Counted from the first letter of the stretch, positions 7,282 through 55,655 are shown. The stretch is 64,000 nt of DNA from Candidatus Dojkabacteria bacterium (GCA_014729085.1 WJKM01000004.1:4345-68344), one strand, 5' to 3'. Notes: a model not told the origin generated them from the sequence alone. Numbers and translations: made by a program.

Positions 7282-10200
7282 ATGGGTAAAACTAAATCTA
7301 CACTAGCACAAATCAGACAGTTTCGAATTGATAAAGCTAATGCTCTAAGAGAAAAAGGTATTGAACCTTATCCAACAAAAGCATCTAGAACAAATTACTC
7401 CGATGAGATTAAAAAAAATTATAGTGATTTTAAAGATAAAAAAGTGACTCTTGCCGGTCGTCTTATGTCATGGCGGGAACATGGACATATTATTTTTGGT
7501 GATATTCAAGATCAAAAGGGAGTCATTCAGCTTTATATTAAAGAAGATACTCTTAATGCAACTAATAAGCAAAAACAATCTATCGGCTTTGAAGATCTTG
7601 AATTACTAGACATAGGAGATATCATTGAAGCAACTGGAATTATAACTAAAACAAAAAGTGGAGAAATATCTATTTTAGCTCAGCAGATTAAAATTCTTAC
7701 GAAAGCCATCAGACCGCTTCCCGAAAAATGGATAGGACTTACTAATAAAGAGAAAATATTCAGAAAAAGATATTTAGATTTGATTGTAAATCCGGAAAAG
7801 AAATACAGATTTGAAAAAAGCGCGCAGATTGTTGCGGCGATAAGACAGTTTTTAAACGATAAAGGATTTCTGGAGATCAAAACACCCATAATTCAACCTT
7901 TATATGGAGGCACAAATGCACGCCCTTTTAAAACATACATGAATGCACTAAGTACAGATTTCTATTTAGCAATTTCTCATGAACTTTATTTAAAACGACT
8001 AATTACAGCAGGTTTTGACAATGTTTACAATATTGCGGGCTATTTCAGAAACGAAGGTATAGATAGATCCCATAATCCAGAATTTCAAATGATTGAAACT
8101 ATGAGTGCTTTTCATAATTATGAATACAATATGGATTTGATAGAAGAACTCTATCAATTTATAGGTAAAAACGTATTTAAGAAAAATATCTTCAAAGTTA
8201 GTGGCCAAGATGTCGACTTTAGTAAACCATGGGAAAGAATTATGATGATTGATGCTGTTAAAAAATATGCTGATATAAACTTTAATAAAATAAATGATAT
8301 TGATTCTGCTCATAATATACTCGCTAAAATTGGTTATGAAGAAGACAAACCAAATACAATTGGAGAATGTATGGTTAAAGTTTTCGAAGAGAAAGTTGAA
8401 GAACAATTAATTCAACCAACTTTTATTACCGGACATCCGGTTGAAATATCACCTCTTGCAAAACAAATGCCTTCTGATTCAAGATTTGTTGAAAGATTTG
8501 AAATCTTTATTGGCGGAATAGAAGGTGGAGATAATTGGACTGAACTTAATGACCCGGTTGAGTTGTATGAAAGACTTAAAGAACAAGTAGAGAGGGGTAG
8601 AGGAGGAGATGACGAATTTCATCCTATGGATGTTGATTTTATTGAATGTATGGAATATGGTATGCCTCCAACAACAGGACTTGGACCTGGCATTGAAAGA
8701 CTACAAATGATGTATTTGGAAACAGAATATATCGATGATGTAATATTCTTTCCAATACAAAGGCCAGCACCTCCAACTGAACTACAAAAAGAATTATATG
8801 GAGCAGAATATCTTGAAAGTAAAGAAAAAGAACTTAAAATACAATCAATAGAACAAAAAGATTTAGATAAACTACCTTCAAAAATAGATGCATTGGATCT
8901 ATTACATAAATATGTAGATGACGATTATCAGGTACTTCATGCAAAAATGGTTGCCGCCGCAATGCAAGATTATGCAGAGGATCTCGGGGCTAATCCGCAT
9001 CTATGGTATATAACCGGTTTACTGCATGATTTGGACTATGCAAAATATCCAGATAAACATCCTTATCAAGAACTTGAATGGTTCAAAGAATGGAAATATC
9101 CTGATCAATTCATACATGCAGTTGCTGCCCATGATCATCTGACAACCGGAGAAGAACCAGAAACTTTACTAGCTGCGGTGTTGCTTGCAGTTGATGAATT
9201 ATCCGGTATTCTCTATGCATATTCAAAAATGCGGGATAAGAATTTTTCCGGTATGAAAGCTAAATCTGCCATAAAAAAACTTGAGGATAAGAATTTTGCA
9301 GCAAAAATAAGCAGAGATGAGATTAAACATGGAATTAAATTATCTAAATTAGATTTAGAACCACATATCAAAAATATGATTACAACTTTTGATAATATGA
9401 AAGAATTTGGAGGTGACAAAGATTATACAGATAAAGTTGAAACAAAAGTTCATTCACTATTAACTAAAAAATTAAAACTTGCTGAGATAACTTCAGAAGT
9501 AAAAGAGAAGTTTCCTGGTATAAAATTCGGATATATAGTTCTTGAGGATGTGAAAGTTGATAAAAAAGATAAAAATTTAGACAAACTTAAAAAAGAAATA
9601 ATTTCTAAACTAGAATCTCAGTATACCGACAAATCTGAAATTAAGGAAAATGATAGGATTGAAGGATTTCGTAAAATCTATAAAAATTCCGGAGTTGATC
9701 CAAATAGTAGATTGAATAGTGCCGAAGCATTGCTAAGAAGAATTGTAAGCGGGAATGGTATATATAATGTAAACAATGTTGTAGATACATATAACATCAC
9801 TTCTGCTGAATTGGGCATTCCTATGGCTGCATATGATTTAGATAAAATAGAGGGTAGATTATCACTCCGTTTTGCAAATAAAGGAGAATCAATAATTAGA
9901 ATTGGAGAAGAAAAACCGAAGTTAATTGAGAAGGGAGAGTTAGTATATGCAGATAACAAAGGCATTACATGCATGGATTTTAATTATAGGGATGCAGATA
10001 GAACTAAAATTACAAAGGAAACAAATAAAATAATTGTATTTATAGATGGACATCAAACTATCAGTCAGAAGGAAATACTCTCCTCATTAAACCTGTTAGG
10101 ACAAAGACTTGAAACATACACAGAAGGTAAGGTAATTGGTTATGGGACTTCATGGGAGGAAGACAAAGTTCTTAACGAAGAAATCAAACAAGATATGAGT

Positions 10201-10605
10201 CGAAAGATGGTTATTGTAGTTGACAAAACATTAGAAAATTGGAAAGTTCTAAATATAGTTGGGCATGTATCTGCTTATCTAGGACATCAGATGGATGAAA
10301 AATTCAGTTCCGGCCCTGCATATAGAACAAAAGACGGAGTAAGATATGATAGAAGTTGCCAATATCCAATAATTGTTTTGCAAACTGATTCATCTAAATT
10401 GTTAGACCTCAAGGATCAGTCTGAATTATCAGATATCCTCTCTTTTTCTTTTACTAAACAACATCTAGAAATTGAGAAGGATGAAGATGTTGATGCATCC
10501 ATTTCAAATCTTGAAGAAAAAGAAATTGAGCTTTATGGTGTGGGTTTAGTAGGGGAAAAAGAAAAGTTAGACAAACTTACAAATAATTTTAAACTATGGA
10601 AGTAA
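7282..10605 (+). CDS. lysS: lysine--tRNA ligase (class II) fused to an HD phosphohydrolase domain, a B3/4 (PheT editing-like) domain and a DUF2000-like C-terminal domain
   Basis: Single uninterrupted 1107-aa ORF. Residues 1-500 are canonical class II LysRS (OB fold, FRNEG motif 2, GLGPGIERL motif 3). The HD domain spans about nt 8860-9440 (HAKMVAAAMQDYAEDLGANPHLWYITGLLHDLDY). The B3/4 domain spans about nt 9510-10060 (NNVVDTYNITSAELGIPMAAYDLDKIEGRLSLRFANKGESI...LVYADNKGITCMDFNYRDADRTKIT). The C-terminal 150 aa (VVVDKTLENWKVLNIVGHVSAYLGHQ) look DUF2000-like, a family reported to have a peptidyl-tRNA-hydrolase-like fold. Confidence 0.85.
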   Translation: MGKTKSTLAQIRQFRIDKANALREKGIEPYPTKASRTNYSDEIKKNYSDFKDKKVTLAGRLMSWREHGHIIFGDIQDQKGVIQLYIKEDTLNATNKQKQSIGFEDLELLDIGDIIEATGIITKTKSGEISILAQQIKILTKAIRPLPEKWIGLTNKEKIFRKRYLDLIVNPEKKYRFEKSAQIVAAIRQFLNDKGFLEIKTPIIQPLYGGTNARPFKTYMNALSTDFYLAISHELYLKRLITAGFDNVYNIAGYFRNEGIDRSHNPEFQMIETMSAFHNYEYNMDLIEELYQFIGKNVFKKNIFKVSGQDVDFSKPWERIMMIDAVKKYADINFNKINDIDSAHNILAKIGYEEDKPNTIGECMVKVFEEKVEEQLIQPTFITGHPVEISPLAKQMPSDSRFVERFEIFIGGIEGGDNWTELNDPVELYERLKEQVERGRGGDDEFHPMDVDFIECMEYGMPPTTGLGPGIERLQMMYLETEYIDDVIFFPIQRPAPPTELQKELYGAEYLESKEKELKIQSIEQKDLDKLPSKIDALDLLHKYVDDDYQVLHAKMVAAAMQDYAEDLGANPHLWYITGLLHDLDYAKYPDKHPYQELEWFKEWKYPDQFIHAVAAHDHLTTGEEPETLLAAVLLAVDELSGILYAYSKMRDKNFSGMKAKSAIKKLEDKNFAAKISRDEIKHGIKLSKLDLEPHIKNMITTFDNMKEFGGDKDYTDKVETKVHSLLTKKLKLAEITSEVKEKFPGIKFGYIVLEDVKVDKKDKNLDKLKKEIISKLESQYTDKSEIKENDRIEGFRKIYKNSGVDPNSRLNSAEALLRRIVSGNGIYNVNNVVDTYNITSAELGIPMAAYDLDKIEGRLSLRFANKGESIIRIGEEKPKLIEKGELVYADNKGITCMDFNYRDADRTKITKETNKIIVFIDGHQTISQKEILSSLNLLGQRLETYTEGKVIGYGTSWEEDKVLNEEIKQDMSRKMVIVVDKTLENWKVLNIVGHVSAYLGHQMDEKFSSGPAYRTKDGVRYDRSCQYPIIVLQTDSSKLLDLKDQSELSDILSFSFTKQHLEIEKDEDVDASISNLEEKEIELYGVGLVGEKEKLDKLTNNFKLWK

Positions 10606-26856: not shown

Positions 26857-27831
26857 TCAGATAAAATTCATTACTATCTGCTCTAAATTCTCCGAATCTG
26901 TCTTAATTAAATCATAACCTCTTCCTTCACCCTCAAACCAAGTAATCTGTCTTTTCGCGTATTGTTTATGGGCATTTTGAACTCTTTGAATACATTCTTT
27001 AATACTTTCATCTTTAATACCAAGAAGCATTTCATAAATTTGTTTATAACCAGTTGACTGCATAGCTTTATTATGAAGATCATATCCCATATCTATAAGC
27101 CCTTCTACCTCCGATACAAAGCCATCCTCGAACATTTGCACTACTCGTTCATTAATTTTTTTCATTAATTGGCTTTTTTGAAATTTTGGATATATAAAAA
27201 GTGAATCTAGATCTATCGAATCCAAAGGATTATTGGTGTTCTTATTTTTTGAATCTGTATTTATCTTTTCAATTAACCTAATTAATCGTCTTGGATTATT
27301 TTTATCAGAGTTATTTAAATTAAAGTAAACAGTTGAATCTTTTTCTCTTAGAATTTTTTGCAAGTCTTGAACCTCCATTTTATTGAGTTTATTACGAAGA
27401 GTAGTATCAATTTCTATATTAGGAAGATTATACTTATTAAGAATTGAATCAATGTAAAGCCCTGTTCCTCCAACTAGAATAGGTATCTTTTTTTGAATAT
27501 TAAAATTCAATATCAATTTTGAACAAACGGAATAATAATCATATAGAGTAAAATTAACATCGGGTTCAACGAAACTAAATAAATGACCCTTCATATCAGA
27601 ATTATCTACATTCATTACTGGTAGAGGCTTATGGTCGATCATTTCTGTTGCTATTCTTGTTAATTTTCCCTTATTTGATCCAATATTTAAATACTTATAC
27701 ACTTGAACAGAGTCCGCATTAATAATTTCGGCTGATATAATTTTTGAAATCATTAAAGCAAGTTCTGTCTTCCCTGAGGCAGTAGGACCTCCAATAACTA
27801 TTATCTTTTGTGTACGATTCTGTGAGTTCAT
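26857..27831 (-). CDS. miaA: tRNA dimethylallyltransferase MiaA
   Basis: IVIGGPTASGKTELAL...IINADSVQVYKYLNIGSNK, ILVGGTGLYIDSIL, and a C-terminal tRNA-binding region. Confidence 0.85.
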   Translation of the reverse strand: MNSQNRTQKIIVIGGPTASGKTELALMISKIISAEIINADSVQVYKYLNIGSNKGKLTRIATEMIDHKPLPVMNVDNSDMKGHLFSFVEPDVNFTLYDYYSVCSKLILNFNIQKKIPILVGGTGLYIDSILNKYNLPNIEIDTTLRNKLNKMEVQDLQKILREKDSTVYFNLNNSDKNNPRRLIRLIEKINTDSKNKNTNNPLDSIDLDSLFIYPKFQKSQLMKKINERVVQMFEDGFVSEVEGLIDMGYDLHNKAMQSTGYKQIYEMLLGIKDESIKECIQRVQNAHKQYAKRQITWFEGEGRGYDLIKTDSENLEQIVMNFI

Positions 27832-27900
27832 TTTCTATAATATAAAAGATTTATCAATTGAATTATAATGTATTATTAATCAACATAAAAAAAATTCTAT

Positions 27901-29037
27901 ATGGATTATTTAGAGAAACTAAAAGATTTAAACAAAAAAATTAATGCTATTTGGCTTAAAGGGGTAGCTTTCTTTTTACTTATAATATTCCTTTTTGCAT
28001 TGGGTAAAAATCTGAAACTATTTCCAGAAAGACCTCCCTTACAAGAACAACTCAAACCTATTTTAGAAGCAGATTTTAGTATAGATCAGACACAATATAA
28101 AAATTGTAATTTATCATCTTCCAATGAAAACGTGGATACCTCACCTCTAAAGACAAATGACCAACTTGGGAAAATAGATCTAATTGAAGACACAGACAAA
28201 ATAACAGACAAAAAAAATTTAATCCCACCGGTTTATAATCCTAAATTCATTACTTTAGATGAAGCTAAAGACTGTATTAAGCCTAATGAAATTATTTATG
28301 CTCTTACCATAGAAGATCAAACTCATATATATACTTATTCGGTTCTTGCTAAGCATCAAATCATTCATGATATGTTTCAAATAACTAACAAAGAAAACGA
28401 GACAATATCAAAAGAAGTTATAGTAACTTACTCGCCTTACTCAGACTCGATTTCTGCATTTATCACGTCTGAAATTTTTGGAAACTCCGGAAGGCTATAC
28501 AAAGGTATTAATCTTCTTTTCGATACCAAAACTGAATCCTTATGGCTGCAAATAAATGGGGAGGCGATAATAGGGAATAGAACAGGTGAAAGAATCGAGC
28601 ACTTACCGATTCGAACCCTTACATTCGAAGAAGCAGGTATTAAATTTCCCGAAGGATCCTTTCTTTCCTTCGATACTGGTTACATTACTGATTACTCTAA
28701 AGATCCTTATAAAGATTTTCATACTAATGACCAAATTGTAGGTAAAATTACTCAAAATATCTCAACAAATCTACTTAAGGAAAAAGTCATTGCTATCGAT
28801 TATTCAGGTGAACAGAAAGCCTACTTATTAAATAGTTCACTTCAAGATGAAGACTTAATTGATAAGATTAACGAAGAAGAAATAAAAATATATAAAAATA
28901 TGGAGTTTGATACTTATGAAATTGCTAAAATTGACAACAACGGGAATGTAACTACAATACTTCCATCGGTGCAAATGTACCTGTATTCTTGGAAGGAAGT
29001 TTTTCCAAATAGCAAAATTTACTCAAATAAGTTATAA
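27901..29037 (+). CDS. DUF3179-family protein (membrane-anchored), lacking the usual CPLC cysteines
   Basis: LIPPVYNPKFITLDEAKDCIKPNEIIYALTIEDQTHIYTYSVLAKHQIIHDMF...VTYSPYSDS...FGNSGRLYKGINLLFDTKTESLWLQINGEAIIG follows the DUF3179 consensus. The CPLC motif is replaced by SPYSDS. Confidence 0.5.
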   Translation: MDYLEKLKDLNKKINAIWLKGVAFFLLIIFLFALGKNLKLFPERPPLQEQLKPILEADFSIDQTQYKNCNLSSSNENVDTSPLKTNDQLGKIDLIEDTDKITDKKNLIPPVYNPKFITLDEAKDCIKPNEIIYALTIEDQTHIYTYSVLAKHQIIHDMFQITNKENETISKEVIVTYSPYSDSISAFITSEIFGNSGRLYKGINLLFDTKTESLWLQINGEAIIGNRTGERIEHLPIRTLTFEEAGIKFPEGSFLSFDTGYITDYSKDPYKDFHTNDQIVGKITQNISTNLLKEKVIAIDYSGEQKAYLLNSSLQDEDLIDKINEEEIKIYKNMEFDTYEIAKIDNNGNVTTILPSVQMYLYSWKEVFPNSKIYSNKL

Positions 29038-30235: not shown

Positions 30236-33200
30236 CTATAGATCTTTCACGGCTTTGTCAGGTAAAATTTTTATTTTTGGGAAGACAAAAGCAATCAATG
30301 AAAAAATGATTATAGTCAAAAGAATTACATGAGTTTCTGACTCAGGCATTGATTGCCCTTTAAACATGCTTGGAACATTTAAATTCTGTTCTCCAATGTC
30401 ATATTCCTCATCATATGCATCATCATCTTCGGATAATTCATCCAGCTGTTGTTTCTGCCACGTAGTCTGAACTGCAATCATTGAATTAAAAGGATCAACA
30501 AAATGTTCTTCTTTTGCTATTTTTGTCATTTCTTTTGCATAATACAATCTAGATTGTGAATCATTCATGTAGCCAATGAAATCTTTAGAATCGTTAGATT
30601 TATTGAGCTTTTCAATTACATCATTCCAAACTGTTTCTTCTTCTACTTGTTGATCTTGACAATTTTCATTTTTATAATCCAATTCAATAATATCAACTTC
30701 TTCGATATCTTTTATATGAAATATTCTCCCATTTGATGACCAAACTAGATTATTAACTTCTTCCTTTTGACTAGTCAATCTATCCCCAACCTGAATAATG
30801 TTTATCTGATTGTTAAGATTTGTTGAGTAATTAAAATCAAAATCAACTTCTTCTGAAAATTCAAAATCTGAACTATCTGTAATAATATATGTCACTGTAT
30901 TTTCAAACTGTGTATCTTCAACTATAAGTTTTTCTGCTACGTCAGACGTATCTGAATATCCCCAGAATTCATTATTCATAATCCATGTATATATTTGATC
31001 TTCGATAATAATACCTTCCTCATAATTGACATCAAAATTATATTCATATATCTCAAAATTACTTGTGTCAAATTCCTGAAATATTTTATTTGTAACTTCT
31101 TGGTATATCTTTCTATTTTGGATAGATTCAGCACTTTTGGAGAAATCATAGAATATTCTAATATTTTCAACTTCACCAAAATTACTCTCGTCTTTTTGAA
31201 TGTAATCACAAATATTTGAAAACTTTGAAAAAGAAAGTACAGAATTGTCTTTTAACTCGTCTCCATTCCTTCCAGGTGATAGTTTATAGAACTCTGAGTA
31301 AACAGGTTCTTCTTTATGCGATGTAGGATATTGAGTACTTGTTGCTGAAATTTCCTTAATTTTGTTTTTATTTTCTCCCTCAAAGGATATTTCAGCTGAA
31401 TAATTTGTTTTGTTGGAAATATCTAAATTTCGAGTATATGGAAACCTTAGCAATTGGTATTTACCTTTGATTTGACCACTGACTGTAAACTGTACTTTCT
31501 GATAATCAGGAACTATTATATCTTCCCACGTATTTGTTCTTGAATTCCAATTTGATTGAATATCACCTCCTTTTGGTGGAATTGGATAAACTCTTAATCT
31601 ATAAGTTCTAGGTCCTACTAATTCCATTAAAGCTGGATCAATACTTCGTGTTAAACTTCTCTCATACACAGTTTTAGCAGCTGCTTTTGGCGCTACGATT
31701 CCTGGATTTTCTAAGTCAGGCCCAAGATTCAAATCGGTTATTATAGTCTCTTCGGGAAGGCTAAACTCAAAGTAAACTTCTTGATTAGTAATTTCTTTAT
31801 TTTTAAAAGTGAAAGTATAATTTGTTTCATGCAAATTATAATCAGTATTAATTGTAGATTTCACATGTAAATCTTCTAGAAATACACTTTTCTTGTCTTC
31901 ATCAATCAGACCAGCTGAGTCATCAATTGTACCTCTAAAGGAAAATACGCCTTCAGTTAATGTATTGGAGGTATATTTATTTATCATATCTGATTCAGCC
32001 CGTTGAATATTGTCATCAAATACTTTCTTATATTCGATATCTGCACTCTCAAAGTCTTCAAACAAATTTCCTTTATAAACTACAGCTGATACTAAAAAAG
32101 AAAAAGATGTATACATCTCATCGCAATATACCGAAGGCAAATTAAATTCAAAGTCATCACTAAATGGAGAAGAATAATATCTGTACTTATTCTGCTGACA
32201 ATATAGTTTATAAAATATTTTATCTGATTCATCATCAAAAATATTTTCGTATCTTGCAAAGAATTTTTCTTTTAAAGCATCTTTAGTTCTATTTTCATTT
32301 ACATATAAATCCATATATTTTTCTTTTAAGACATCAAACTCTCCTTGGGAATTGGTAACTTTGGTAATTTCCTCTCTGTATTTAGAATTGAAATCGTAAC
32401 TCATTACAGTAATAATCAAAACACTTGAAAATACGGCTATAAAAGGAACTAAAAGCTTCGATACATTCGTTAGACTTACTGCATTTTTCTTGATTTTAAA
32501 TCCTTTGCTAAAGTTAAATAAGCTATTTAAATGCCTCTTAAATAGATTGATGAACTTCTTTAAATAGATAGGAAACACATATGCTGGACTTAAATACAAG
32601 AAAGACATTATTCCAAAAATTAGGAACATGAGTGGAGAAACGGCTAATATGCCTCCACCAGCAAAATTATTATTATAGGGATTAAAACTAAACATTTCGG
32701 CTAGCAGTTCCAAAAATCCTTTTAGAACGGAAAGAGCAATATATGGAAAGAAAAAAGCCCAAATAAGAAATATATAGCCAGACATTAAAGAACCAATGGA
32801 ATAAGCTACAAGCTTCAAGTACTCAAATATGTGTTTATATCTCTTAACTATTTTTAGATCAATTAGATCTAAGAATAAAATAAAACAGGAATATAAAATT
32901 AATATAAACATAAATCCTAAGACAGGAGAGTATATTTGTATTACAAAAATTCTAAAGACAGACAGTAAAAATAATGGAACTTCAATCCCTAGTAGGAATA
33001 AAAGCATTGATCGTAATTTTTTCCTAATATTAAGATATACTCCTACAACTATTCCTATTGTAGGTATAAGTAAAGCACCTATATAAGTAAGTGCAGAAGC
33101 AATGGTTAATTCTTCTGGACCTCTGAGAATGACTGTAAAGAATAAAAATGCGCCACCCAGAATATAAAGTGCCCAAAATATATGTGGTATCCAGAAAAAT

Positions 33201-33556
33201 ATGTATGCTGATAAACGAAGTAATTTTTTCAACTTGCCTTTAGGAGACTTACGTTCATTCTTTTTTGAAATATCATCTGGAGCTTCTTGTTTCATATCCT
33301 CAATTGTTCCCATTTTATTTATTAGAGTCTGTATATCTTCAGTTGTAAGGACTTCTTGTTTATTTGAATTTAGAGCATATTTTAAATGTTCCTCAATCCT
33401 ATCTTTCATATCCTGCCAAATGTCTTCCTTATCTCCATTTTCACTCAAATGTTTTTTAAGAGACGTAATATAATTCTCATAAACTTTCTTGGCTGAACTT
33501 TGAATTTTAAATTTTGTATTATTAATTTTTATTTTTTGTATTTTTTTGTTTACCAT
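30236..33556 (-). CDS. large polytopic membrane protein with N-terminal HAAS/DUF1700-like domain and a roughly 650-aa extracytoplasmic C-terminal region
   Basis: N-terminal 100 aa (VYENYITSLKKHLSENGDKEDIWQDMKDRIEEHL...LTTEDIQTLINKMGTIEDM) fit the DUF1700/HAAS pattern usually paired with PadR. Then about ten hydrophobic helices. Then a long hydrophilic domain with no recognisable fold. The start overlaps the PadR gene by 35 nt. Confidence 0.6.
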   Translation of the reverse strand: MVNKKIQKIKINNTKFKIQSSAKKVYENYITSLKKHLSENGDKEDIWQDMKDRIEEHLKYALNSNKQEVLTTEDIQTLINKMGTIEDMKQEAPDDISKKNERKSPKGKLKKLLRLSAYIFFWIPHIFWALYILGGAFLFFTVILRGPEELTIASALTYIGALLIPTIGIVVGVYLNIRKKLRSMLLFLLGIEVPLFLLSVFRIFVIQIYSPVLGFMFILILYSCFILFLDLIDLKIVKRYKHIFEYLKLVAYSIGSLMSGYIFLIWAFFFPYIALSVLKGFLELLAEMFSFNPYNNNFAGGGILAVSPLMFLIFGIMSFLYLSPAYVFPIYLKKFINLFKRHLNSLFNFSKGFKIKKNAVSLTNVSKLLVPFIAVFSSVLIITVMSYDFNSKYREEITKVTNSQGEFDVLKEKYMDLYVNENRTKDALKEKFFARYENIFDDESDKIFYKLYCQQNKYRYYSSPFSDDFEFNLPSVYCDEMYTSFSFLVSAVVYKGNLFEDFESADIEYKKVFDDNIQRAESDMINKYTSNTLTEGVFSFRGTIDDSAGLIDEDKKSVFLEDLHVKSTINTDYNLHETNYTFTFKNKEITNQEVYFEFSLPEETIITDLNLGPDLENPGIVAPKAAAKTVYERSLTRSIDPALMELVGPRTYRLRVYPIPPKGGDIQSNWNSRTNTWEDIIVPDYQKVQFTVSGQIKGKYQLLRFPYTRNLDISNKTNYSAEISFEGENKNKIKEISATSTQYPTSHKEEPVYSEFYKLSPGRNGDELKDNSVLSFSKFSNICDYIQKDESNFGEVENIRIFYDFSKSAESIQNRKIYQEVTNKIFQEFDTSNFEIYEYNFDVNYEEGIIIEDQIYTWIMNNEFWGYSDTSDVAEKLIVEDTQFENTVTYIITDSSDFEFSEEVDFDFNYSTNLNNQINIIQVGDRLTSQKEEVNNLVWSSNGRIFHIKDIEEVDIIELDYKNENCQDQQVEEETVWNDVIEKLNKSNDSKDFIGYMNDSQSRLYYAKEMTKIAKEEHFVDPFNSMIAVQTTWQKQQLDELSEDDDAYDEEYDIGEQNLNVPSMFKGQSMPESETHVILLTIIIFSLIAFVFPKIKILPDKAVKDL

Positions 33557-33878
33557 GATGTGAGATATAATTAACAGAATTATTTATTTCCTCCCAAGAG
33601 GATTTGAAAAGAGTAAGTTTTTCCTCACCCTTTGTGGTTAAAACATAATATTTTCTTGGTGGCCCGCTTTTAGACTCAACCCATTTATAGTCCACCAAAT
33701 CATCCCTTTTTAGTCTACTTAATAATGGATAAAGAGTGCCTTCAACTACAATTAAATCTGCTTCCAGTAATTTCTTTAAAATATCAGATGCATAAACTTC
33801 TGCGTCAGAAATAATCTGCAAAATACAAAACTCTAGTATACCTTTTTTCATTTGTGTTTTAATTTGATCTTTCTCCAT
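33522..33878 (-). CDS. PadR-family transcriptional regulator
   Basis: GILEFCILQIIS...EGTLYPLLSRLKRDDLVDYKWVESKSGPPRKYYVLTTKGEE is the canonical PadR winged helix. Confidence 0.75.
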   Translation of the reverse strand: MEKDQIKTQMKKGILEFCILQIISDAEVYASDILKKLLEADLIVVEGTLYPLLSRLKRDDLVDYKWVESKSGPPRKYYVLTTKGEEKLTLFKSSWEEINNSVNYISHHGKQKNTKNKN

Positions 33879-33885
33879 TATTTAT

Positions 33886-34356
33886 TTAAACATAGCTAAA
33901 TTCAACATTCTTTGCCTCAATAGGAACTACAACAGATTTTTCATTCTGAAATGGGAGAGGCAATATACTAATCCCAAATAACTCTAAGTGTATATTAGAA
34001 GTTTGAGTAGCATGTGCATAGCCTTCCAACTCAAAGGAACCATCTTGCTTATTCTTGAAATAAACACCGGTTTTTCTAACGTTACCGTTGTTTGGGAATT
34101 CATAAACAGGGTAACTCAATTCTAGACCCTCTTTATCTATAATGCTAATTAAATTTTCATATGATATGCTTTCCAGATCCAACTCAGACTCAACAAGTGA
34201 TTTTTTTATATTATTGATATCAATCATAACTAGATCTTTGGAACTCATACATGCACAAGGCAACTCTAAACCAATAACAATATTTCCAATTTTAAGATTT
34301 ACTATTAAAAAAATCAGTGGAGTTATAAGAAAAATTAGTATATGTTTGGTTTGCAT
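33886..34356 (-). CDS. hypothetical membrane-anchored protein
   Basis: N-terminal TM segment. 156 aa. First small gene upstream of padR in the same orientation. Confidence 0.4.
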   Translation of the reverse strand: MQTKHILIFLITPLIFLIVNLKIGNIVIGLELPCACMSSKDLVMIDINNIKKSLVESELDLESISYENLISIIDKEGLELSYPVYEFPNNGNVRKTGVYFKNKQDGSFELEGYAHATQTSNIHLELFGISILPLPFQNEKSVVVPIEAKNVEFSYV

Positions 34357-34440
34357 ATTTAAATATAAAAAGAAAATTATTTTAAAACAATTCCTAAGAT
34401 TGTATCACAAAGAACTATGTATTACAAGGTACCAATTTAT

Positions 34441-35025
34441 TTATGAGATATATTGTTCAATATCAAGAAAGTGCCTAACTAAAAGCTGTTCATTTTCAAC
34501 TGGGGTATAGGGATAGATATATATAAATATTTTTTGTTTTTTGTCAAAAAAATCAAAAATATTGTATTCAGTATAAATATTATCTTCCTGGATTAACCAA
34601 AAATATGAATTACCTGAGTTTTTTAATATCATCTTTCGAACAAAAATATCATCTTCAATTAATATATTGTTTATTCTGTACACTTTTGTACCTTTTTGAA
34701 CTTCAATTTTAGGAATTTCTGCTAATATACGATTCGAATTTGTTTCTCCAACAATAATGATTCCATTTAAATTTTGATTAATGAAAAATTCATATGATCC
34801 CAGGCTTGAAAAGTTTGATGTGGAAAATATTTCTGTTATATTGGGGGAGAGCTTAATCTTTTTAAATTCTATAGAGGGAGAATTACTAAGTCTCAGATTC
34901 TTTATATTAATTAACTTAACTTTTGACTGACTCATTAAAAAAACTTTTATAAGACCTAATAAAACTAATACTAAGACTAATAAGGGATAAACTGTATTAT
35001 TTTTTACTTTAATTTTAGTATTCAA
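34441..35025 (-). CDS. hypothetical membrane-anchored protein
   Basis: N-terminal TM segment. 194 aa. First gene of the putative four-gene minus-strand operon. Confidence 0.4.
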   Translation of the reverse strand: MNTKIKVKNNTVYPLLVLVLVLLGLIKVFLMSQSKVKLINIKNLRLSNSPSIEFKKIKLSPNITEIFSTSNFSSLGSYEFFINQNLNGIIIVGETNSNRILAEIPKIEVQKGTKVYRINNILIEDDIFVRKMILKNSGNSYFWLIQEDNIYTEYNIFDFFDKKQKIFIYIYPYTPVENEQLLVRHFLDIEQYIS

Positions 35026-36820: not shown

Positions 36821-38602
36821 CTAACTTGTCTTGATAATCAACTTTTCTTTGTTGGGAGGGCATATAAATCGTTTATATTTTTCGCAATACGTGTATAAAT
36901 TTGTTTCTGTTTGGGAGTTTTTATGTGAGCTTACATGTATTTCGTTTATTGAATAAGTTTCATCGATAATTAAAGAAATATTTTTATTTGGTATTTGAAA
37001 CTCAATTGCTTCATTTATATGAAATAAATTGAAATAATCATAATTCGATTTAGATAAAAAAATTGAAAGATCTTCTTCCTCTTTTAAATTTTCATTGTTC
37101 TTAATTGTCCTAATCATATAACTTAGTAAATAGTCTTGTGTGATACTTTCTCTCTGATACCAAAACATACTCTCGGAAGCCCTTTCATTATAAAAAAAAT
37201 CAAATAAGTTAAATATATTCGTAATAAAAAACAATGAATATATAATTGTATTCCCTAGTATTTTAAAAATTTTGTAGTTAATTTTAGCCTTATTAATGTA
37301 ATTGGTTAATTCTATGAAACCAATCCCAGTGATCATTGATAATATTGGAAATAAAACTGCTAATCTATGATCACAATTTACACAATTTGTTATTGCACTA
37401 TTAGTAAAAGGTAGTAGCATGGCAAGAAATAGAATTACTTTGTGGGGTAACTTTCCCTTAATTAACATAAATACTGCTCCAATAATAAAAAATATATTTA
37501 AGGGAAAAATCAATAAGGGGTTTTTATGAGTATAATGATAGGATACAGGCTCTTTTACATAACCTAATAAAGATTTTTGATAGTTGGAAAAAGCGGTACT
37601 AATTTTTGTTGATATTTGATAATTTTCATCATTAAAAGTTCTGTAGTACTTATCTGTTTTATTAATTAGGGAAACGCTTTTCGTATGAAAAAGTACATTC
37701 GGTGTAGTAAACAATAGTCTAGGACCAAATCCCACTATAAATAAAATAATACAAATTGTAATCTCAAGGAGTATTCTTTTAATACTTTTAATGTCAATCT
37801 GCTTTAACCTAACAATTAAGAGTAAAAATAAAATGAAAATTAAAGCAAAAATAACTGGCTTAATGGATGCATGGAAATTTAAACAAAATCCAGAGAAAAG
37901 AAATATAAGTCTCATTATCTCTGCCTTTCTTTCTTTTATGTACCAAATTATAAAAAAAATATTTATAGTTGTTAGTATGCTACTGAATACTACAACTATC
38001 TCGGTTCTACCATAATATAGGTGTAAAGGTAAACAAATTAAAACGAAAGCAGAAAAAAAAGCATATTTTCTATTAAAAAAAATTTCAACAAATTTATATA
38101 AAAACAATATGTCAACAAATGAAATCAATGCAGACGCAAATTTGAAAGTAATGGTAGAATTACCAAATATCAAATAAAATAAAGATGAAAAAGTCGGTAT
38201 AATCAAGCCATGAGCCTCATATCTCCCATAGGAAAATATATTTCTTATTTCTCCAGTTACTATTCGCAGTGCATCCCAACCACCATCTCTCATCTCGTCA
38301 CCAATAGAATTAAATGGATATATTCTTAAAAAAATAAATCTAGTAAATAGAGCTAATATGATTATTAGAATGAAATTACTATCAAAAATTTTATTAGCTT
38401 TTATATTATTAACAAATTTACCTTCATTCAAAACAAAATATACAACAAATAAACCTAGTGATATAAGCCATAAGAAGAACACGAGCCAACGATATTTGAA
38501 TCGATAGTCAAACTTAACTATAAGCATGGAGATACACCATAAACTTCCTGCCAAAACTACAAATTTCTGTTTGTTAGAATTAATCAGTTTTAAAATTTCC
38601 AT
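36821..38602 (-). CDS. GT-C glycosyltransferase of the ArnT/PMT (GT83/GT39-like) family
   Basis: Multi-TM N-terminal region with first-loop motif FNSIGDEMRDGGWDALRI (compare ArnT RLDEtRYAE...GDW). C-terminal soluble domain. Confidence 0.55.
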   Translation of the reverse strand: MEILKLINSNKQKFVVLAGSLWCISMLIVKFDYRFKYRWLVFFLWLISLGLFVVYFVLNEGKFVNNIKANKIFDSNFILIIILALFTRFIFLRIYPFNSIGDEMRDGGWDALRIVTGEIRNIFSYGRYEAHGLIIPTFSSLFYLIFGNSTITFKFASALISFVDILFLYKFVEIFFNRKYAFFSAFVLICLPLHLYYGRTEIVVVFSSILTTINIFFIIWYIKERKAEIMRLIFLFSGFCLNFHASIKPVIFALIFILFLLLIVRLKQIDIKSIKRILLEITICIILFIVGFGPRLLFTTPNVLFHTKSVSLINKTDKYYRTFNDENYQISTKISTAFSNYQKSLLGYVKEPVSYHYTHKNPLLIFPLNIFFIIGAVFMLIKGKLPHKVILFLAMLLPFTNSAITNCVNCDHRLAVLFPILSMITGIGFIELTNYINKAKINYKIFKILGNTIIYSLFFITNIFNLFDFFYNERASESMFWYQRESITQDYLLSYMIRTIKNNENLKEEEDLSIFLSKSNYDYFNLFHINEAIEFQIPNKNISLIIDETYSINEIHVSSHKNSQTETNLYTYCEKYKRFICPPNKEKLIIKTS

Positions 38603-39395
38603 TAAAATAATTAAGCATGATAATTGTAAATGAAGTCATAAAGACAGTAATAAAATTAGATACAAATTTGTGTGAATTTCTTAAATTGTTAATTTCCAAT
38701 ATATTATTTGAATAAGTCATTAATAAAAGGTGAATCCAGTTTATTAAAACATATATACAGGATATGACTATTATAAAAAATATAATTCTCATTATCTTTA
38801 GATTTCTATAATAGCTTAAAATCAAAGTAAAGACTGACAGAAGATATATATTAGAAACCCCACTACACCCACTATCTATATTAGTATAAATATTACCTGT
38901 AATTATAATTGTATTAACCAATTCTGTTTTAGGATTAATTAAATGAATTATTTCAAAGATCGAAACAGAATAGAATCTTCTAAACAAGATACCAACTATA
39001 GAATTAGTATAAAAGAGAAGGGGAAGGGATAAGAATAAAAGCAGAGATATTATTAGAATTTGTTCATAGTATTTTTTTTCTACAAATAAGAATAATAGAA
39101 TAGTTATGGAAATAATGAATAAAAATGCAGAAATTATAGATATTTTAAAATAATATAAATTCAATAAATCTAAAATTAAAATTGGAATTAGTATCAGAAA
39201 ATATTTCGAATTCCTAATAGAAGCAATTTTAATATTACCTCTGTTAATTTTAGAAATTAAAAGAAGAATAGTAGCTAAAAATATAACAAATCCATATATA
39301 TTTCTAATATCGGAAAACCAAAATCTACATAACCATATTATTGTATTGAAGAAATATAAACATATCAAAAAGAAAATTATTAGGTATTTCTTCAT
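38580..39395 (-). CDS. putative exosortase/archaeosortase-family membrane protein
   Basis: Eight hydrophobic segments. A candidate catalytic Cys in DSGCSGVSNIYL resembles the exosortase xCSG(I/L) motif. It is followed by RNLKIMRI and a His (INWIHLL). Overlaps the downstream GT-C gene by 23 nt. Confidence 0.35.
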   Translation of the reverse strand: MKKYLIIFFLICLYFFNTIIWLCRFWFSDIRNIYGFVIFLATILLLISKINRGNIKIASIRNSKYFLILIPILILDLLNLYYFKISIISAFLFIISITILLFLFVEKKYYEQILIISLLLFLSLPLLFYTNSIVGILFRRFYSVSIFEIIHLINPKTELVNTIIITGNIYTNIDSGCSGVSNIYLLSVFTLILSYYRNLKIMRIIFFIIVISCIYVLINWIHLLLMTYSNNILEINNLRNSHKFVSNFITVFMTSFTIIMLNYFNGNFKTD

Positions 39396-40069: not shown

Positions 40070-41344
40070 ATGAAAAGAAATATTATAACTGTTTCATTCA
40101 CAATCCTTTCTATTTTACTGGTTTTCTGGATTGTAACAGAAAGTACAGCAGCTAATCCGGGAAATAATTGCTGTGGAGAAGCAGATTATGGAAGTTGTAC
40201 AACAGATGGCGATTGGATAGATGGCTATATTGCTTGTTCGAACGGACAATGCAGTAAATGTGCTGGAGCTTCATGGCATTCATGTAATTATGATGGAAAC
40301 TGTGGACCAGGAGAAGATCATGTAGTATGTCCAAATGACTGTGATCAGTACGGAAGAAGTACTGGCTCAAGTAGTACCGATAATTATACTAATTCCGGAA
40401 GCAATCAATGTTCGTGCGCTGATTGGAATTATAATGGTTGTGGTCGAGGTTGTACATTCCCTGGAGGTAAAGACTGTTCGGGAACTGCAAAAGCTAATCC
40501 TGGACGAGTAGTAGTACAGTGGTGTTCAAGTGTAAATAACGCTACATGTAGAGTCGATCCTCCATCAGGTTGTAACTGTATTGTAGGGAACAACTCGGGC
40601 ATGAATATAGGAGACTGCGGAACCTGTGGAAATAAAGCCTGGAGATGGAATCCGGAACAAACACCGCCCCCTTCACAGCCTACTCCTGTGCCTACTCAGC
40701 CAACTTTACCGCCGCCACCATTACCTGGCTGTCCATGTGTAAGAACTTATACAAATCCAAGTGAATCGCCATATTATAACCCTCAGACTAAACAAACTTT
40801 TCCTGATGTTCCTATATCACATCAGTATTTTGAATATATTCAATGCCTTGAATGTGATAACGTAGTTCATGGATACAGCAATTGGACTTTCAAACCGGAG
40901 CAACCAATTACTAGAGCTGAAATGGCTAAAATAATCGAAAACGGCTTTCGAATACCTGAAAATCTTGGATGCACACCTTTTAGAGATGTTCATTATGGTA
41001 CAGTTTTTTATCATTACATTACGACTCTTAAATGCTGGGGAATCTCAAACGGATATTCTGATGGTACATATAGACCTCAATATTATATTACAAGAGCTGA
41101 AGCTGTTAAACTTATTGTTCTGGCAGCAAGACGTGCTAAAGCTGATCCCAATTTTTTAGCAAACCGAGCAAATCATCAAGTTTTTTATGATGTACCAACA
41201 AATCATGTACATTTCCAATACATTAATGCTCTTTACTCAAATAATGTAAGAGATCCTAACTATAGTCAGTACTTTAGGCCAGAAAACTATATAACAAGAG
41301 CCGAAATGTCTCTATATGTTGATATCGCAAGGAGATATATGTAA
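40070..41344 (+). CDS. secreted Cys-rich protein with Pro-rich linker and three C-terminal SLH domains
   Basis: Signal peptide. 30 Cys in the first 200 aa (CCGEADYGSC...CSKCAGASWHSC...), then TPPPSQPTPVPTQPTLPPPPLPGCPC, then three SLH repeats (FPDV.../FRDV.../FYDV...ITRAE). Local GC is clearly above the window average. Confidence 0.7.
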   Translation: MKRNIITVSFTILSILLVFWIVTESTAANPGNNCCGEADYGSCTTDGDWIDGYIACSNGQCSKCAGASWHSCNYDGNCGPGEDHVVCPNDCDQYGRSTGSSSTDNYTNSGSNQCSCADWNYNGCGRGCTFPGGKDCSGTAKANPGRVVVQWCSSVNNATCRVDPPSGCNCIVGNNSGMNIGDCGTCGNKAWRWNPEQTPPPSQPTPVPTQPTLPPPPLPGCPCVRTYTNPSESPYYNPQTKQTFPDVPISHQYFEYIQCLECDNVVHGYSNWTFKPEQPITRAEMAKIIENGFRIPENLGCTPFRDVHYGTVFYHYITTLKCWGISNGYSDGTYRPQYYITRAEAVKLIVLAARRAKADPNFLANRANHQVFYDVPTNHVHFQYINALYSNNVRDPNYSQYFRPENYITRAEMSLYVDIARRYM

Positions 41345-52447: not shown

Positions 52448-53371
52448 ATGATTAAAGTAAAAAATCTTACTAAAAAATTCAAACAAACGGTCGCAGTTGA
52501 TGATATATCATTTGAAATAAAACAAGGAGAAATTGTTGGTGTCTTGGGCCCAAATGGTGCAGGTAAAACTACAACACTAAGAATTCTTGCAGGATATTTA
52601 TACCCTGATAAAGGACAAATAACTATGCAGGATCAAAACTTCTTAAAAAATGACAATGAATTGAAACTCGATATTGGATACATGCCAGAAAATAATCCTA
52701 TATATAAAAATATGTTAGTTAAAGATTTGCTACTTCTTACCTTAAATTTAAATAATATACCCAAAGATAAACATAAAGAAAGGATTGATTATGTTTTAAA
52801 TGCAGTTGATATAAAAGATAAATATTATCGTCCCATTTCTGAACTTTCTAAAGGTTATAAACAAAGAGTGGGGCTTGCTCAGGCATTAATAAATGACCCT
52901 AACATCCTAATTCTAGATGAACCTACTGAAGGACTCGATCCTAATCAAAGAGCAGAAATAAGATCGCTTATAAAAGATGTTGGCAAAAAAAGAACTGCCA
53001 TTATCAGCACACATGTTATGCAGGAAGTAGAAGCTATGTGTAATAGAATAATCATCATTCACAAAGGAAAAATTATTGCTGATGGAAAAAAAGAAGAAAT
53101 TCTTAAAATGAAGGAAGAAGGTGACCGAATTAAGCTTGATATCGAAGGCAAAGGGATTAAGAAAGCTATTCAAAAAATTGATCATATAAATGTTTTACAG
53201 AGTAAAACTAAAAAAGGACGAACAAAAATGGAAATTGAATTACTCAAAGAGGCTGAAGATAAGGTATATGAGGATATCTCAAAACTAATAGCAAAAAACA
53301 AATGGGTTTTATACAGACTCGAACCGATGCAAAATACTTTAGAAGAAATATTTTATAAACTCACAAAATAA
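52448..53371 (+). CDS. ABC transporter ATP-binding protein (ABC-2 type)
   Basis: Walker A GPNGAGKTTT, signature LSKGYKQRVGLAQA, Walker B ILILDEPT. Confidence 0.85.
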   Translation: MIKVKNLTKKFKQTVAVDDISFEIKQGEIVGVLGPNGAGKTTTLRILAGYLYPDKGQITMQDQNFLKNDNELKLDIGYMPENNPIYKNMLVKDLLLLTLNLNNIPKDKHKERIDYVLNAVDIKDKYYRPISELSKGYKQRVGLAQALINDPNILILDEPTEGLDPNQRAEIRSLIKDVGKKRTAIISTHVMQEVEAMCNRIIIIHKGKIIADGKKEEILKMKEEGDRIKLDIEGKGIKKAIQKIDHINVLQSKTKKGRTKMEIELLKEAEDKVYEDISKLIAKNKWVLYRLEPMQNTLEEIFYKLTK

Positions 53372-53396: not shown

Positions 53397-55655
53397 ATGC
53401 CTAAAATAAATATTAAGAAACCAAATCTTAAGATTCACAAAGTTTTTTTCTCAAATCTGAATTCTTTAATTTTTAAAGAACTGAAATCCTATTTTAATAG
53501 CCCGATAGTTTACATTGTTGCATTTGTTGGAATCATTTTTCATTTCTTTTTCTTTTTATTTTTAGGTGCTTTTTTCCAAAATGGCGTATCTGATTTAACT
53601 ACTTATTTTGAATCACTGCCATGGATATTTTTATTAATGGTTCCTGCTTTTACAATGGGATCCATTTCTAAAGAAATCAATCAAGGTACAGATGAATATA
53701 TACTTACTAAACCCGTTAAAACCATTGAGTTTGTGTTAGCAAAAGTTGTTGCAGCATTTTCTTTTATTTTAATTACATTACTTTTTGAACTACCAGCTGT
53801 TATTACTATTATCACAGCCGGTGATTTTGACATTGGCAAGCTCTTTACTCAATATCTGGCTGTTATTTTTGTTGCTTTTTGTCTTACAACAGTAGGAGTG
53901 TTTTACTCAAGTGTAGTAAAGAATCAAATCGGTTCATTATTACTAACCTTACTCTCAAACTTTATTATTCTATTTATTGGAAGTAGGGTAGTTACATTTG
54001 TTTTACCTCTTTTTCTTGCCCCATACATTGAAAGAATCAGCTTAATTACCCACTTTGAATCCATGCTTAAAGGAGTAATAGATTTACAGGATTTAATTTA
54101 TTTTACGGGTTTTGCACTATTTTTCATAACATTGATTTATTACAAAATAAGTACAATAAGACTTCCAAAAAAAAGTATAAAGTTAACAAAATTAAGATTT
54201 ACAACACTACTATTATTAGTAATCATATTTTTTATTACTGGTTTTGGACAAAAGATACCTGGAAGTATAGATCTGACTAGAAATAAAATCAATACTTTGT
54301 CGGAAGTAAGCAAAGATATTAGCAAAAATTTAGATGAAAAAACTACTATTCAACTTTACTATTCCGAGTCATTACCAGCTGGGCTTCAAACCATAAAAAG
54401 AGATACAATATCTCTATTAAATGATTTTAAAAAAGCTGGTAACGATAAAATACGGATTGTACATAAAATTGGAGATACTACAAAGGCTATGGATAAGGGC
54501 ATCCGTGTGGAAAAACAAGGATCAGGGAATTTATCAACTTTACAAATCTCTGATGTCTATCTTGGGCTTGTTATTAAATATAAAGATCAGGAAGAAACAA
54601 TTGCCTCCATATCCAATACAAATAATCTTGAATATGAAATTACCAGTACACTTACAAAATTATCTAACAAAGATAAAAAAGTCATAGGTATTTTAGATAC
54701 CAAGGTACGAAATACCTCAACTACTGGCTTAACTGCCTTTAAATCTACTCTTGAACGTGAATATACCGTTGAGTCAATTATTTTCGATGAAGAACAACGT
54801 ACTATAGATAGTGAAAAATTTGATGCAATCATTATTTCTGCACCCAACCAAGAAATGTCTGAAGAAATGCAGGGAGAAATTAGAAGATACTTTGATGAGG
54901 GTGGGGCACTCTTCTTTATGGTAGATCCAATTAACGTACAAACCCAAATGATGTTTTCAGCAAGCAGTGTTGAATCGCCATTAAACAATTTTTTTGAAGA
55001 TCTTGGAATTACAGTAGAAAAAACACTTCTCTTTGATCTTAAAAGTTATGCCAGCTTGCAGCATCCAAACTACGTTTTTGGAATCCCATATCCATTTTTT
55101 ACAATTACCGCAAATACAGGAGAAAACAATTCATTTAATAATATTTCAAGTGTAATGCTAGGTTGGGCAAGTTGGATCAGGATTGATGAAGAAAAAGTCC
55201 ATAATATAGAAATTACACCTATACTGCAAACTTCAAATTTTGCTGGTTTCCAAAAAGAAGGTGAATTCAACATCGAAATGGAACAGACCTGGGACAACAT
55301 TAAAGAAAACGAATTAGACCAATATACTGTTGCTGTATCATTTGTTGAACAAGATGACTCTCCTGGACGAGCTGTCTTGGTATCAGATTCCGATTTTCTT
55401 ACAAATCAATATGGACATCTTGAAAGCTACCAGAATAGTGCATTTGGACTTACTTCAATTGAATGGTTGGTTCAAAACGAAGCTCTGTCTTCCATTAAAG
55501 GCAAAAGCAGACAGATAGCTCCTCTTATGGTTAAAAGTCCTGCTCATGCTCTGTTTTTAAATATCATGATGTTTTCTCCGTTTGCTCTAATCCTTCTAAT
55601 AGCAGCTGGAAAATTCATACTAAGAAAAAGAGAGATGAAGAAAGTGTATAAATAA
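53397..55655 (+). CDS. ABC-2 permease fused to a GldG-like extracytoplasmic domain
   Basis: Six N-terminal TM helices (ABC-2/GldF-like), a roughly 450-aa soluble region resembling GldG auxiliary components, and a C-terminal TM anchor. Confidence 0.6.
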   Translation: MPKINIKKPNLKIHKVFFSNLNSLIFKELKSYFNSPIVYIVAFVGIIFHFFFFLFLGAFFQNGVSDLTTYFESLPWIFLLMVPAFTMGSISKEINQGTDEYILTKPVKTIEFVLAKVVAAFSFILITLLFELPAVITIITAGDFDIGKLFTQYLAVIFVAFCLTTVGVFYSSVVKNQIGSLLLTLLSNFIILFIGSRVVTFVLPLFLAPYIERISLITHFESMLKGVIDLQDLIYFTGFALFFITLIYYKISTIRLPKKSIKLTKLRFTTLLLLVIIFFITGFGQKIPGSIDLTRNKINTLSEVSKDISKNLDEKTTIQLYYSESLPAGLQTIKRDTISLLNDFKKAGNDKIRIVHKIGDTTKAMDKGIRVEKQGSGNLSTLQISDVYLGLVIKYKDQEETIASISNTNNLEYEITSTLTKLSNKDKKVIGILDTKVRNTSTTGLTAFKSTLEREYTVESIIFDEEQRTIDSEKFDAIIISAPNQEMSEEMQGEIRRYFDEGGALFFMVDPINVQTQMMFSASSVESPLNNFFEDLGITVEKTLLFDLKSYASLQHPNYVFGIPYPFFTITANTGENNSFNNISSVMLGWASWIRIDEEKVHNIEITPILQTSNFAGFQKEGEFNIEMEQTWDNIKENELDQYTVAVSFVEQDDSPGRAVLVSDSDFLTNQYGHLESYQNSAFGLTSIEWLVQNEALSSIKGKSRQIAPLMVKSPAHALFLNIMMFSPFALILLIAAGKFILRKREMKKVYK

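Follow-up and report, generated by a model that had tools for sequence, protein, structure and literature searches.

A probable PadR–HAAS regulatory pair on a TIGR02921-like, putative exosortase target in Candidatus Dojkabacteria

HAAS domains consist of three helices, the third kinked at a GxP motif, and always lie beside a standalone PadR; an architecture of the form HAAS–PspC–LiaI-LiaF-TM–Toastrack has also been described (Ravi, Aravind and co-workers, mSystems 2024, PMC11237479). In Listeria, LltR autorepresses lltR-lmo0600-lmo0601, of which lmo0600 encodes a DUF1700 protein, approximately 100- to 150-fold (PMC6624303). Another type of system pairs an exosortase with a multi-transmembrane (TM) protein carrying a VIT domain. 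HAAS–PadR dyads and exosortase/VIT-protein pairs are each known only from comparative genomics, and here we describe a locus in which the two appear to be joined in one protein. The locus lies in a 64,000-nucleotide (nt) stretch of a Candidatus Dojkabacteria genome bin (WS6, candidate phyla; GCA_014729085.1, WJKM01000004.1, 4345-68344), hereafter the window, in which a padR gene precedes the gene of a 1106-amino acid membrane protein, hereafter the giant protein. We judge it reasonably probable that this locus combines an autoregulated PadR–HAAS pair with a dedicated exosortase/substrate system onto which the pair has been grafted, for which we infer the mechanism proposed below. The main features, in window positions, are:

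30236-33556, minus strand: giant gene, 1106 amino acids; HAAS domain, seven TM helices, VIT/vWA-like extracytoplasmic domain (ectodomain) and a C-terminal tail resembling a sorting signal
33522-33878, minus strand: padR, 118 amino acids (PF03551); its last 35 nt overlap the giant gene
33886-34356, minus strand: open reading frame (ORF) of 156 amino acids with a single TM helix, between the operator and padR; lineage-specific
34399-34430, minus strand: candidate PadR operator; a palindrome at 34414-34430 overlaps the promoter -35 element
34441-35025, minus strand: single-TM ORF of 194 amino acids with a TTG start; homologue of the C-terminal domain of exosortase O (XrtO)
38580-39395, minus strand: exosortase catalytic protein with eight TM helices, 271 amino acids (PF09721; Cys motif IDSGCSG)

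Transcription on the minus strand runs from the 194-amino acid ORF through the 156-amino acid ORF and padR to the giant gene, in a window of approximately 30% G+C. Public annotation gives identical boundaries (MBD3362195.1, to which the giant protein is identical, and MBD3362196.1) and lists the giant protein, the exosortase and the 194-amino acid protein as hypothetical proteins. Word-based searches returned only the five members of the giant protein family, namely the window protein and four full-length relatives at 36-45% identity, together with one TIGR02921 protein, and a family-alignment search for related loci in genome and metagenome contigs returned zero loci. One related locus, L001, is syntenic with the window despite approximately 44% protein identity, given that miaA and the gene of a DUF3179 protein border the cassette in each of them (26857-29037 in the window; 3072-5164 in L001). 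We divide the giant protein into the following parts:

33272-33556, minus strand: HAAS-type N-terminal cytoplasmic domain, residues 1-95, from profile search, Pfam scan, reverse hidden Markov model (HMM) and AlphaFold2 (AF2) model
32399-33220, minus strand: seven-TM domain, residues 113-386, with the N-terminus inside; common to TIGR02921
30332-32398, minus strand: extracytoplasmic domain, residues 387-1075, net acidic and apparently ITIH-like
31571-31879, minus strand: VIT domain, residues 560-662 (PF08487)
30713-31168, minus strand: probable vWA domain, residues ~797-948, with D804-x-S806-x-S808 resembling a metal ion-dependent adhesion site (MIDAS) and a strand ending in T893-D894
30239-30352, minus strand: C-terminal sorting-signal-like tail with S1069-M-P-E-S, a TM helix (1076-1095) and a K-containing end

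The N-terminal cytoplasmic domain is HAAS-type. A profile of residues 1-112, built from four family members and scored against 1.84 billion cluster representatives, matched 4595 proteins at E ≤ 1e-3 and 659 at E ≤ 1e-10; the matches listed lay at the extreme N-terminus, typically over residues 2-100, with the repetitive TPR protein P0005 as the exception. When 94 of these matches were scanned against Pfam, PspC was present in 84, the LiaI-LiaF-TM region in 66, HAAS (PF22564) in 62, DUF2807 in 43 and Toastrack in 18, and the PF22564 matches spanned residues ~26-85 (best E 4e-9). A reverse HMM made from the N-termini of PspC-type proteins only scored the window domain at 85 bits, a value that is somewhat inflated given that its sequences were picked with the family profile. 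The AF2 model of the domain, from a 46-sequence alignment, had a mean predicted local distance difference test (pLDDT) value of 80, with a core above 90, and consisted of a beta-hairpin (residues 6-19), helices at 20-38, 43-65 and 72-82, a break at G83 and a short helix at 85-89. G83 was invariant in all 46 sequences. The PspC, LiaI-LiaF-TM and PF22564 content of the profile matches is that of the HAAS-PspC architecture, and the three-helix model broken at G83 agrees with the published description of HAAS (PMC11237479). The link to HAAS is transitive, via homologues that themselves match PF22564.

The product of the upstream gene is a winged helix-turn-helix PadR protein (PF03551, 65 bits against a cut-off of 27, residues 19-89), 67% identical to the PadR of L001 and 36-63% identical to PadRs found beside the same operator in other phyla. 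In all five family loci, padR lies directly upstream of the giant gene. The 35-nt overlap of the two genes (33522-33556), as reported in the earlier note, survives a check of the start codon: the ATG at 33556, nine codons into the open frame, is the earliest start codon past the upstream stop, and the later in-frame starts (TTG at codon 37, ATG at codon 50) would remove a beta-hairpin and helix whose conservation starts at residue ~4, both across the five family members and across thousands of homologues, which argues that the overlap is real. It is found in the window only, where PadR is longer by approximately ten codons; in the four relatives, the distance from padR stop to giant gene start is +1, +27, 0 and -1 nt. 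Immediate adjacency of the two genes is therefore what is conserved.

Ahead of padR in L001 and L002, and ahead of the 156-amino acid ORF in the window, the sole conserved intergenic block is the palindrome ACCTTGT-N3-ACAAGGT, which directly precedes a TGn-extended -10-like element. The palindrome is perfect in L002, with 12-nt arms, and reads ACCTTGT-AAT-ACATAGT on the gene strand of the window, where it overlaps the -35 element of a promoter called by a promoter scanner (TTGTAA-17-TACAAT, with an upstream TG); the scanner called none in L001 or L002. Given that the arm mismatches are uncompensated in the opposite arm, a protein-binding site is favoured over an RNA hairpin. The two small membrane-anchored ORFs that the earlier note had placed ahead of padR on the same strand are present, as listed above. 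Its grouping of all four genes into one operon did not hold: given that the conserved promoter/operator block separates the 194-amino acid from the 156-amino acid ORF, the regulated unit is probably the 156-amino acid ORF, padR and the giant gene. A terminator scan called none between the 194-amino acid gene and the operator. The 156-amino acid ORF (NCBI gene GF362_00580) had no family match in Pfam and NCBIfam scans and is absent from L001 and L002. Neither the window nor L001 showed a PadR operator ahead of the exosortase gene, and PadR thus seems to act on expression of the substrate and not of the enzyme.

At 9540-9570 of L001, between the 188-amino acid homologue of the 194-amino acid ORF and the padR operator, we noted by eye a G/C-rich hairpin (CCCCCCTTTTTGTTAAAGGGGG). 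Judged by eye, it would part the exosortase unit from the padR unit; it has no T-run and was not called by the terminator scanner.

Within the window alone, the operator statistic was not significant (two matches against 2.5 expected), and the weight given to the operator comes from its conserved position and from a blind scan. The blind probe, CCTTGNNNTACAAGGTAGCTT, matched 16 loci in species-representative genomes, among them Proteobacteria of several classes, and 26 in metagenomes; these loci are not all distinct, at least one contig being in both collections (L018 = L040). The 16 genome matches could have been dismissed as chance, about that number being expected, but tblastn placed PadR genes beside many of them, and this explanation was rejected. 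A PadR homologue was found beside the motif in 20 of the 42 loci, with the palindrome centre 17-79 nt upstream of the padR start in 17 of them and ~694 nt upstream, behind a small multi-TM ORF, in the other three. The latter arrangement parallels that of the window, where an ORF also stands between operator and padR. The gene downstream of padR often overlaps it by 4-14 nt. We scanned ten ORFs downstream of or near padR in these loci and found Pfam HAAS proteins above threshold (50-53 bits; L011, L034, L035), PspC proteins with a hairpin-type N-terminus (L007, L009, L013, L020) and proteins with a HAAS-like domain, multiple TM helices and VIT (L026, L042), all downstream of padR; the tenth ORF, small and upstream in L042, had no match.

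The proteins of L026 (417-2000) and L042 (1474-3012, on the reverse strand in padR orientation) are cut by contig ends, and their best NCBIfam match was the XrtN-system VIT protein (86-91 bits). L037 and L039 are similar. These four contigs have ~57-60% G+C and carry the operator, padR and a protein with a HAAS-like domain (RIGAPQP), multiple TM helices and VIT, with an ORF of ~220 amino acids and several TM helices between operator and padR in three of the four (L037, L039, L042). The combination of PadR, HAAS and VIT membrane proteins is therefore not confined to the lineage of the window. Across loci L006-L047, in Proteobacteria and other organisms, the palindrome takes the form AAGCTACCTTG-N5-CAAGGTAGCTT, followed by TGn and a TATAAT-like element (for example, L013 861-881, L009 3988-4008 and L011 818-838), and it looks like a cross-phylum operator, still a candidate, of a HAAS-linked PadR subfamily. 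The string was not found in the searchable literature. The blind operator scan supports the succession of operator, PadR subfamily and HAAS partner without recourse to the HAAS profile.

Hydropathy, AF2 helices and the alternation of K+R in successive loops (8/1/4/0/4/0/8) agree on a topology with the N-terminus inside, seven TM helices, the ectodomain outside, one C-terminal TM helix and a tail inside, which replaces the approximately ten TM helices first suggested. The 689-residue ectodomain has 132 D+E against 69 K+R, and the final tail is basic. This ectodomain, which the earlier note had described as ~650 amino acids with no recognisable fold, does have recognisable parts: it contains a VIT domain (PF08487, E 3.6e-12, 46.9 bits against a cut-off of 26.5) and D804, S806 and S808, invariant in all six aligned proteins, which include the TIGR02921 protein P0153. 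The region around these residues was modelled with an alternating beta-alpha pattern at pLDDT 50-72, and Foldseek matched the low-confidence full-length model to the vWA domains of TFIIH p44, vWF A1 and Rpn10; there was no Pfam VWA match in the giant protein, and the vWA assignment is probable. With the same full-length model, the best Foldseek matches were, besides isolated vWA domains, ITIH1 structures (6fpz/6fpy, E 4e-10, ~500 columns), and ITIH4 was the top, weak PDB sequence match (E 0.5). From this model, the ectodomain looks like an ITIH-like succession of VIT and vWA. The nearest NCBIfam VIT families are named targets of C-terminal sorting (sortase target, XrtN system, MSEP-CTERM).

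Behind its HAAS domain, the giant protein matches TIGR02921, 'PEP-CTERM integral membrane protein' in NCBIfam (E 3.6e-44, 151.2 bits), and a relative, P0002, matches it at 159 bits from residue 151 onwards. A query without the HAAS domain retrieved one genuine member, P0153 (723 bits), which begins at the first TM helix, has no HAAS domain and carries VPEPE, a TM helix and RRGRK at its C-terminus. A genuine XrtO (302 bits against a cut-off of 250) is encoded by the gene that overlaps the start of P0153 by 17 nt. P0153 aligns with the window protein along the TM, VIT, DxSxS and tail regions, so that in the six-protein alignment S1069-M-P-E-S of the window stands against VPEPE. All six proteins have P1071 and E1072, and the five family members share S1069, the column of which holds V in P0153. 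The tail pattern of the family is S-x-P-E-[SAG], a TM helix and a basic end; given the predicted topology, the P-E motif lies at the outer face and the basic tail inside, the same placement as in the PEP-CTERM model (PMC1569441). Among the window ORFs, such a tail is unique to the giant protein. The sole other sizeable ORF with a C-terminal TM anchor, an ABC-2 permease fused to ABC_transp_aux/DUF7088 (53397-55655, plus strand) and adjoined by an ATPase (52448-53371), has no P-E motif. We therefore predict that the giant protein is a divergent, TIGR02921-like exosortase target.

The candidate enzyme carries the EpsH domain (PF09721, 58.4 bits against a cut-off of 25.7) and is 39% identical to its orthologue in L001 (8146-8946), for which the best subfamily was XrtT at 43 bits. 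Its IDSGCSG aligns with IDIPCSG of the genuine XrtO of locus L004, and one His aligns as well. In L001, the order is exosortase, 188-amino acid homologue of the 194-amino acid ORF (20-nt overlap), padR and giant gene; in L002, it is the 194-amino acid homologue (partial gene), padR and giant gene. Two large multi-TM genes intervene in the window and not in L001:

35168-36811, plus strand: unclassified multi-TM protein with no family match
36821-38602, minus strand: multi-TM PMT_2 glycosyltransferase; its start overlaps the exosortase stop by 23 nt

The 194-amino acid ORF matches positions 283-422 of the 451-position XrtO profile (E 4.6e-6) and has homologues in L001 (188 amino acids, 2e-14) and L002 (the partial gene, 1e-27). 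A three-sequence HMM of this family gave the L004 XrtO 17.8 bits, whereas none of 73 decoys exceeded 4.9 bits, and a database search with the 194-amino acid ORF returned itself alone. On this homology, the ORF is best described as a putative detached C-terminal domain of an exosortase, and the enzyme would thus be split between a catalytic gene and a single-TM C-domain gene.

Taken together, these features suggest a working model, each step of which, like the catalytic-residue reading of the exosortase, is conjectural. A PadR dimer would bind the palindrome and repress the unit formed by the 156-amino acid ORF, padR and the giant gene, and the tight or overlapping gene junctions would ensure that PadR and its partner are made in fixed proportion. 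The HAAS domain may dock PadR at the membrane via a groove at the kink of the third helix (G83), and the seven-TM domain may relay the state of the ectodomain to HAAS, altering the hold of PadR on the operator. The input could be ligand binding to the metal site of the vWA domain, or loss of the C-terminal anchor through exosortase action. The split exosortase would cut at S-x-P-E, freeing or transferring the C-terminus of the ectodomain, and the seven TM helices would keep the protein anchored. A more specific proposal, that the HAAS–PadR pair monitors the sorting of the very protein that carries it and that cleavage or transfer of the C-terminal anchor switches between release and return of PadR, seems to us rather unlikely; if true, transcription of a surface protein would be fed back from its C-terminal sorting pathway. 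That unrelated organisms of high G+C content (L026, L042) also combine HAAS-like VIT proteins with this PadR and operator hints that the coupling may have arisen or spread more than once.

Several observations weigh against a PadR–HAAS pair grafted onto an exosortase/substrate system. The giant protein family comprises only five members, three of them on short contigs. The AF2 model of the whole protein is poor (mean pLDDT 49.6), the right arm of the window palindrome is degenerate (two mismatches), and the TIGR02921 score of the window protein is below the cut-off of 200 bits. Neither PF22564 nor PF08006 (DUF1700) matched any of the five family members, even with a threshold of E ≤ 10, and Pfam and NCBIfam scans of their N-terminal domains gave chance-level matches only (for example, Ku_PK_bind and DUF6375). 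The earlier assignment of the first ~100 amino acids to DUF1700/HAAS therefore stands for HAAS, by the profile route over ~95 amino acids and with a PadR neighbour in five of five loci, and not for DUF1700. The giant protein family has Ile or Val where GxP has its Pro (G83-T-I in the window), although several PspC-type homologues do carry G-x-P. A Foldseek search of the domain model against PDB found nothing significant (best E ~1) and did not recover 2O3L (DUF1048), and PDB sequence searches with domain profiles likewise found nothing significant.

The docking and modulation of PadR by HAAS were, moreover, proposed from gene context alone (PMC11237479), and PadR repressors that control their own operon in response to small molecules are well documented (PMC6624303). 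PadR might accordingly be an ordinary ligand-responsive autorepressor, of the kind that senses phenolic acids or drugs, and the giant protein its regulated cargo, with an N-terminal domain that makes no contact with PadR and an adjacency that serves co-expression. We give this explanation a low probability: the same PadR subfamily and operator precede HAAS-type N-termini on unrelated proteins (PspC, small two-TM and VIT proteins), padR and partner genes often overlap by the short distances noted above, and the strict co-migration of a ~90-amino acid cytoplasmic domain with PadR is hard to square with co-expression alone.

The tail and the enzyme raise a second alternative, in which the C-terminal hydrophobic segment is a second membrane anchor that is never cleaved and the exosortase serves other substrates or is a remnant. 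In its favour, and as further points against the exosortase half of the preferred reading, the tail motif lacks the second Pro (P-E-S, not P-E-P) and had no match to the PEP-CTERM HMM (PF07589). The window exosortase fits no named subfamily (best XrtO, 38 bits against a cut-off of 250) and lies 3.5 kb upstream, cut off from the cassette by the two unrelated genes. It may also be without the usual Arg: by spacing from the Cys, N-x-x-R seems to be N-W-I-H in the window and N-L-I-H in L001, as opposed to N-T-L-R in the L004 XrtO, a reading that depends on the alignment; MAFFT did not align the motifs in this way, and the conserved Arg is not confidently placed. On the other hand, the invariant P1071 and E1072 stand in the columns of the canonical VPEP of P0153, a genuine TIGR02921 protein encoded by a gene that overlaps a genuine XrtO gene; L001 has its exosortase immediately next to the cassette, and no other window ORF has such a tail. 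We thus consider an uncleaved anchor improbable. Less probable still is that the giant protein is a structural or regulatory partner, a membrane platform that docks its tail into the exosortase, with HAAS–PadR reporting assembly of the complex: one exosortase gene lies beside one multi-TM protein in each locus examined, whereas PEP-CTERM systems usually have many soluble substrates (PMC1569441), and the exosortase C-domain gene is always beside padR and the giant gene, but the tail is built of all three parts expected of a cleaved sorting signal.

Two further window genes deserve mention. A secreted protein of 424 amino acids (40070-41344, plus strand) has an N-terminal half rich in Cys, a Pro-rich linker and three SLH domains; this protein and the exosortase both have a bearing on the nature of the cell envelope of this organism. 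An ORF of 1107 amino acids (7282-10605, plus strand), considered as a possible paralogue of the giant protein, was rejected as such: it encodes a fusion of unusual architecture, a class II aminoacyl-tRNA synthetase (anticodon OB and catalytic core) with HD, B3_4 and DUF2000.

Compared with described systems, the PadR–HAAS pair of the window shares with HAAS–PadR dyads a short standalone padR upstream, often translationally coupled in those dyads (PMC11237479), and shares with them and with Listeria LltR-lmo0600 a three-helix cytoplasmic N-terminus with a kink at a conserved Gly. As with LltR, there is apparent autorepression from a palindrome at its own promoter (PMC6624303). In contrast to the dyads, the window domain has an extra N-terminal beta-hairpin, G-T-I in place of GxP and no direct Pfam HAAS/DUF1700 match, and the partner is a TIGR02921-like, seven-TM, VIT/vWA-like protein with a sorting-signal tail. 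No such partner is described in PMC11237479, in which exosortase, VIT and vWA are not mentioned. The operator AAGCTACCTTG-N5-CAAGGTAGCTT with its extended -10 element offers a practical handle for finding further PadR–HAAS units.

The succession of VIT and a vWA-like domain with a MIDAS motif is common to ITIH1 (PDB 6FPY) and to TIGR03788, the 'marine proteobacterial sortase target'. Unlike in these, the module of the window is the ectodomain of a seven-TM protein tied to a transcription factor, with a structural match that comes from a low-confidence model. The XrtN-system VIT protein (TIGR04477) and the MSEP-CTERM protein (TIGR04286) are sister multi-TM VIT families with dedicated sorting signals, and the XrtN-type relatives in L026 and L042 have a HAAS-like N-terminus and an operator-linked PadR. 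Their similarity to the window protein is confined to the VIT region, their contigs stop before the C-terminus, and their HAAS fragments had no match to the TIGR04477 model.

The closest kinship is with TIGR02921 and XrtO (TIGR04489), which are described in NCBIfam/TIGRFAM models only; we found no paper on either in the literature, and among the matches listed, none linked exosortases to this candidate phylum. Common to both systems are the multi-TM half, VIT, DxSxS, a module preceding the tail, the succession of motif, TM helix and basic end, a neighbouring exosortase gene and a homologous exosortase C-terminal domain. The window differs in its P-E-[SAG] rather than P-E-P motif and in an exosortase that is split in two genes and belongs to no named subfamily. 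In addition, where P0153 has XrtO directly upstream, the window protein adds a HAAS domain and linker of ~110 amino acids in front and a padR gene upstream. We infer that gene control is here linked to a protein-sorting pathway, a new and undescribed connection, in which the HAAS–PadR dyad would gain a candidate input, a metal-site ectodomain and/or a processing event, and the sorting system would gain a transcriptional output.

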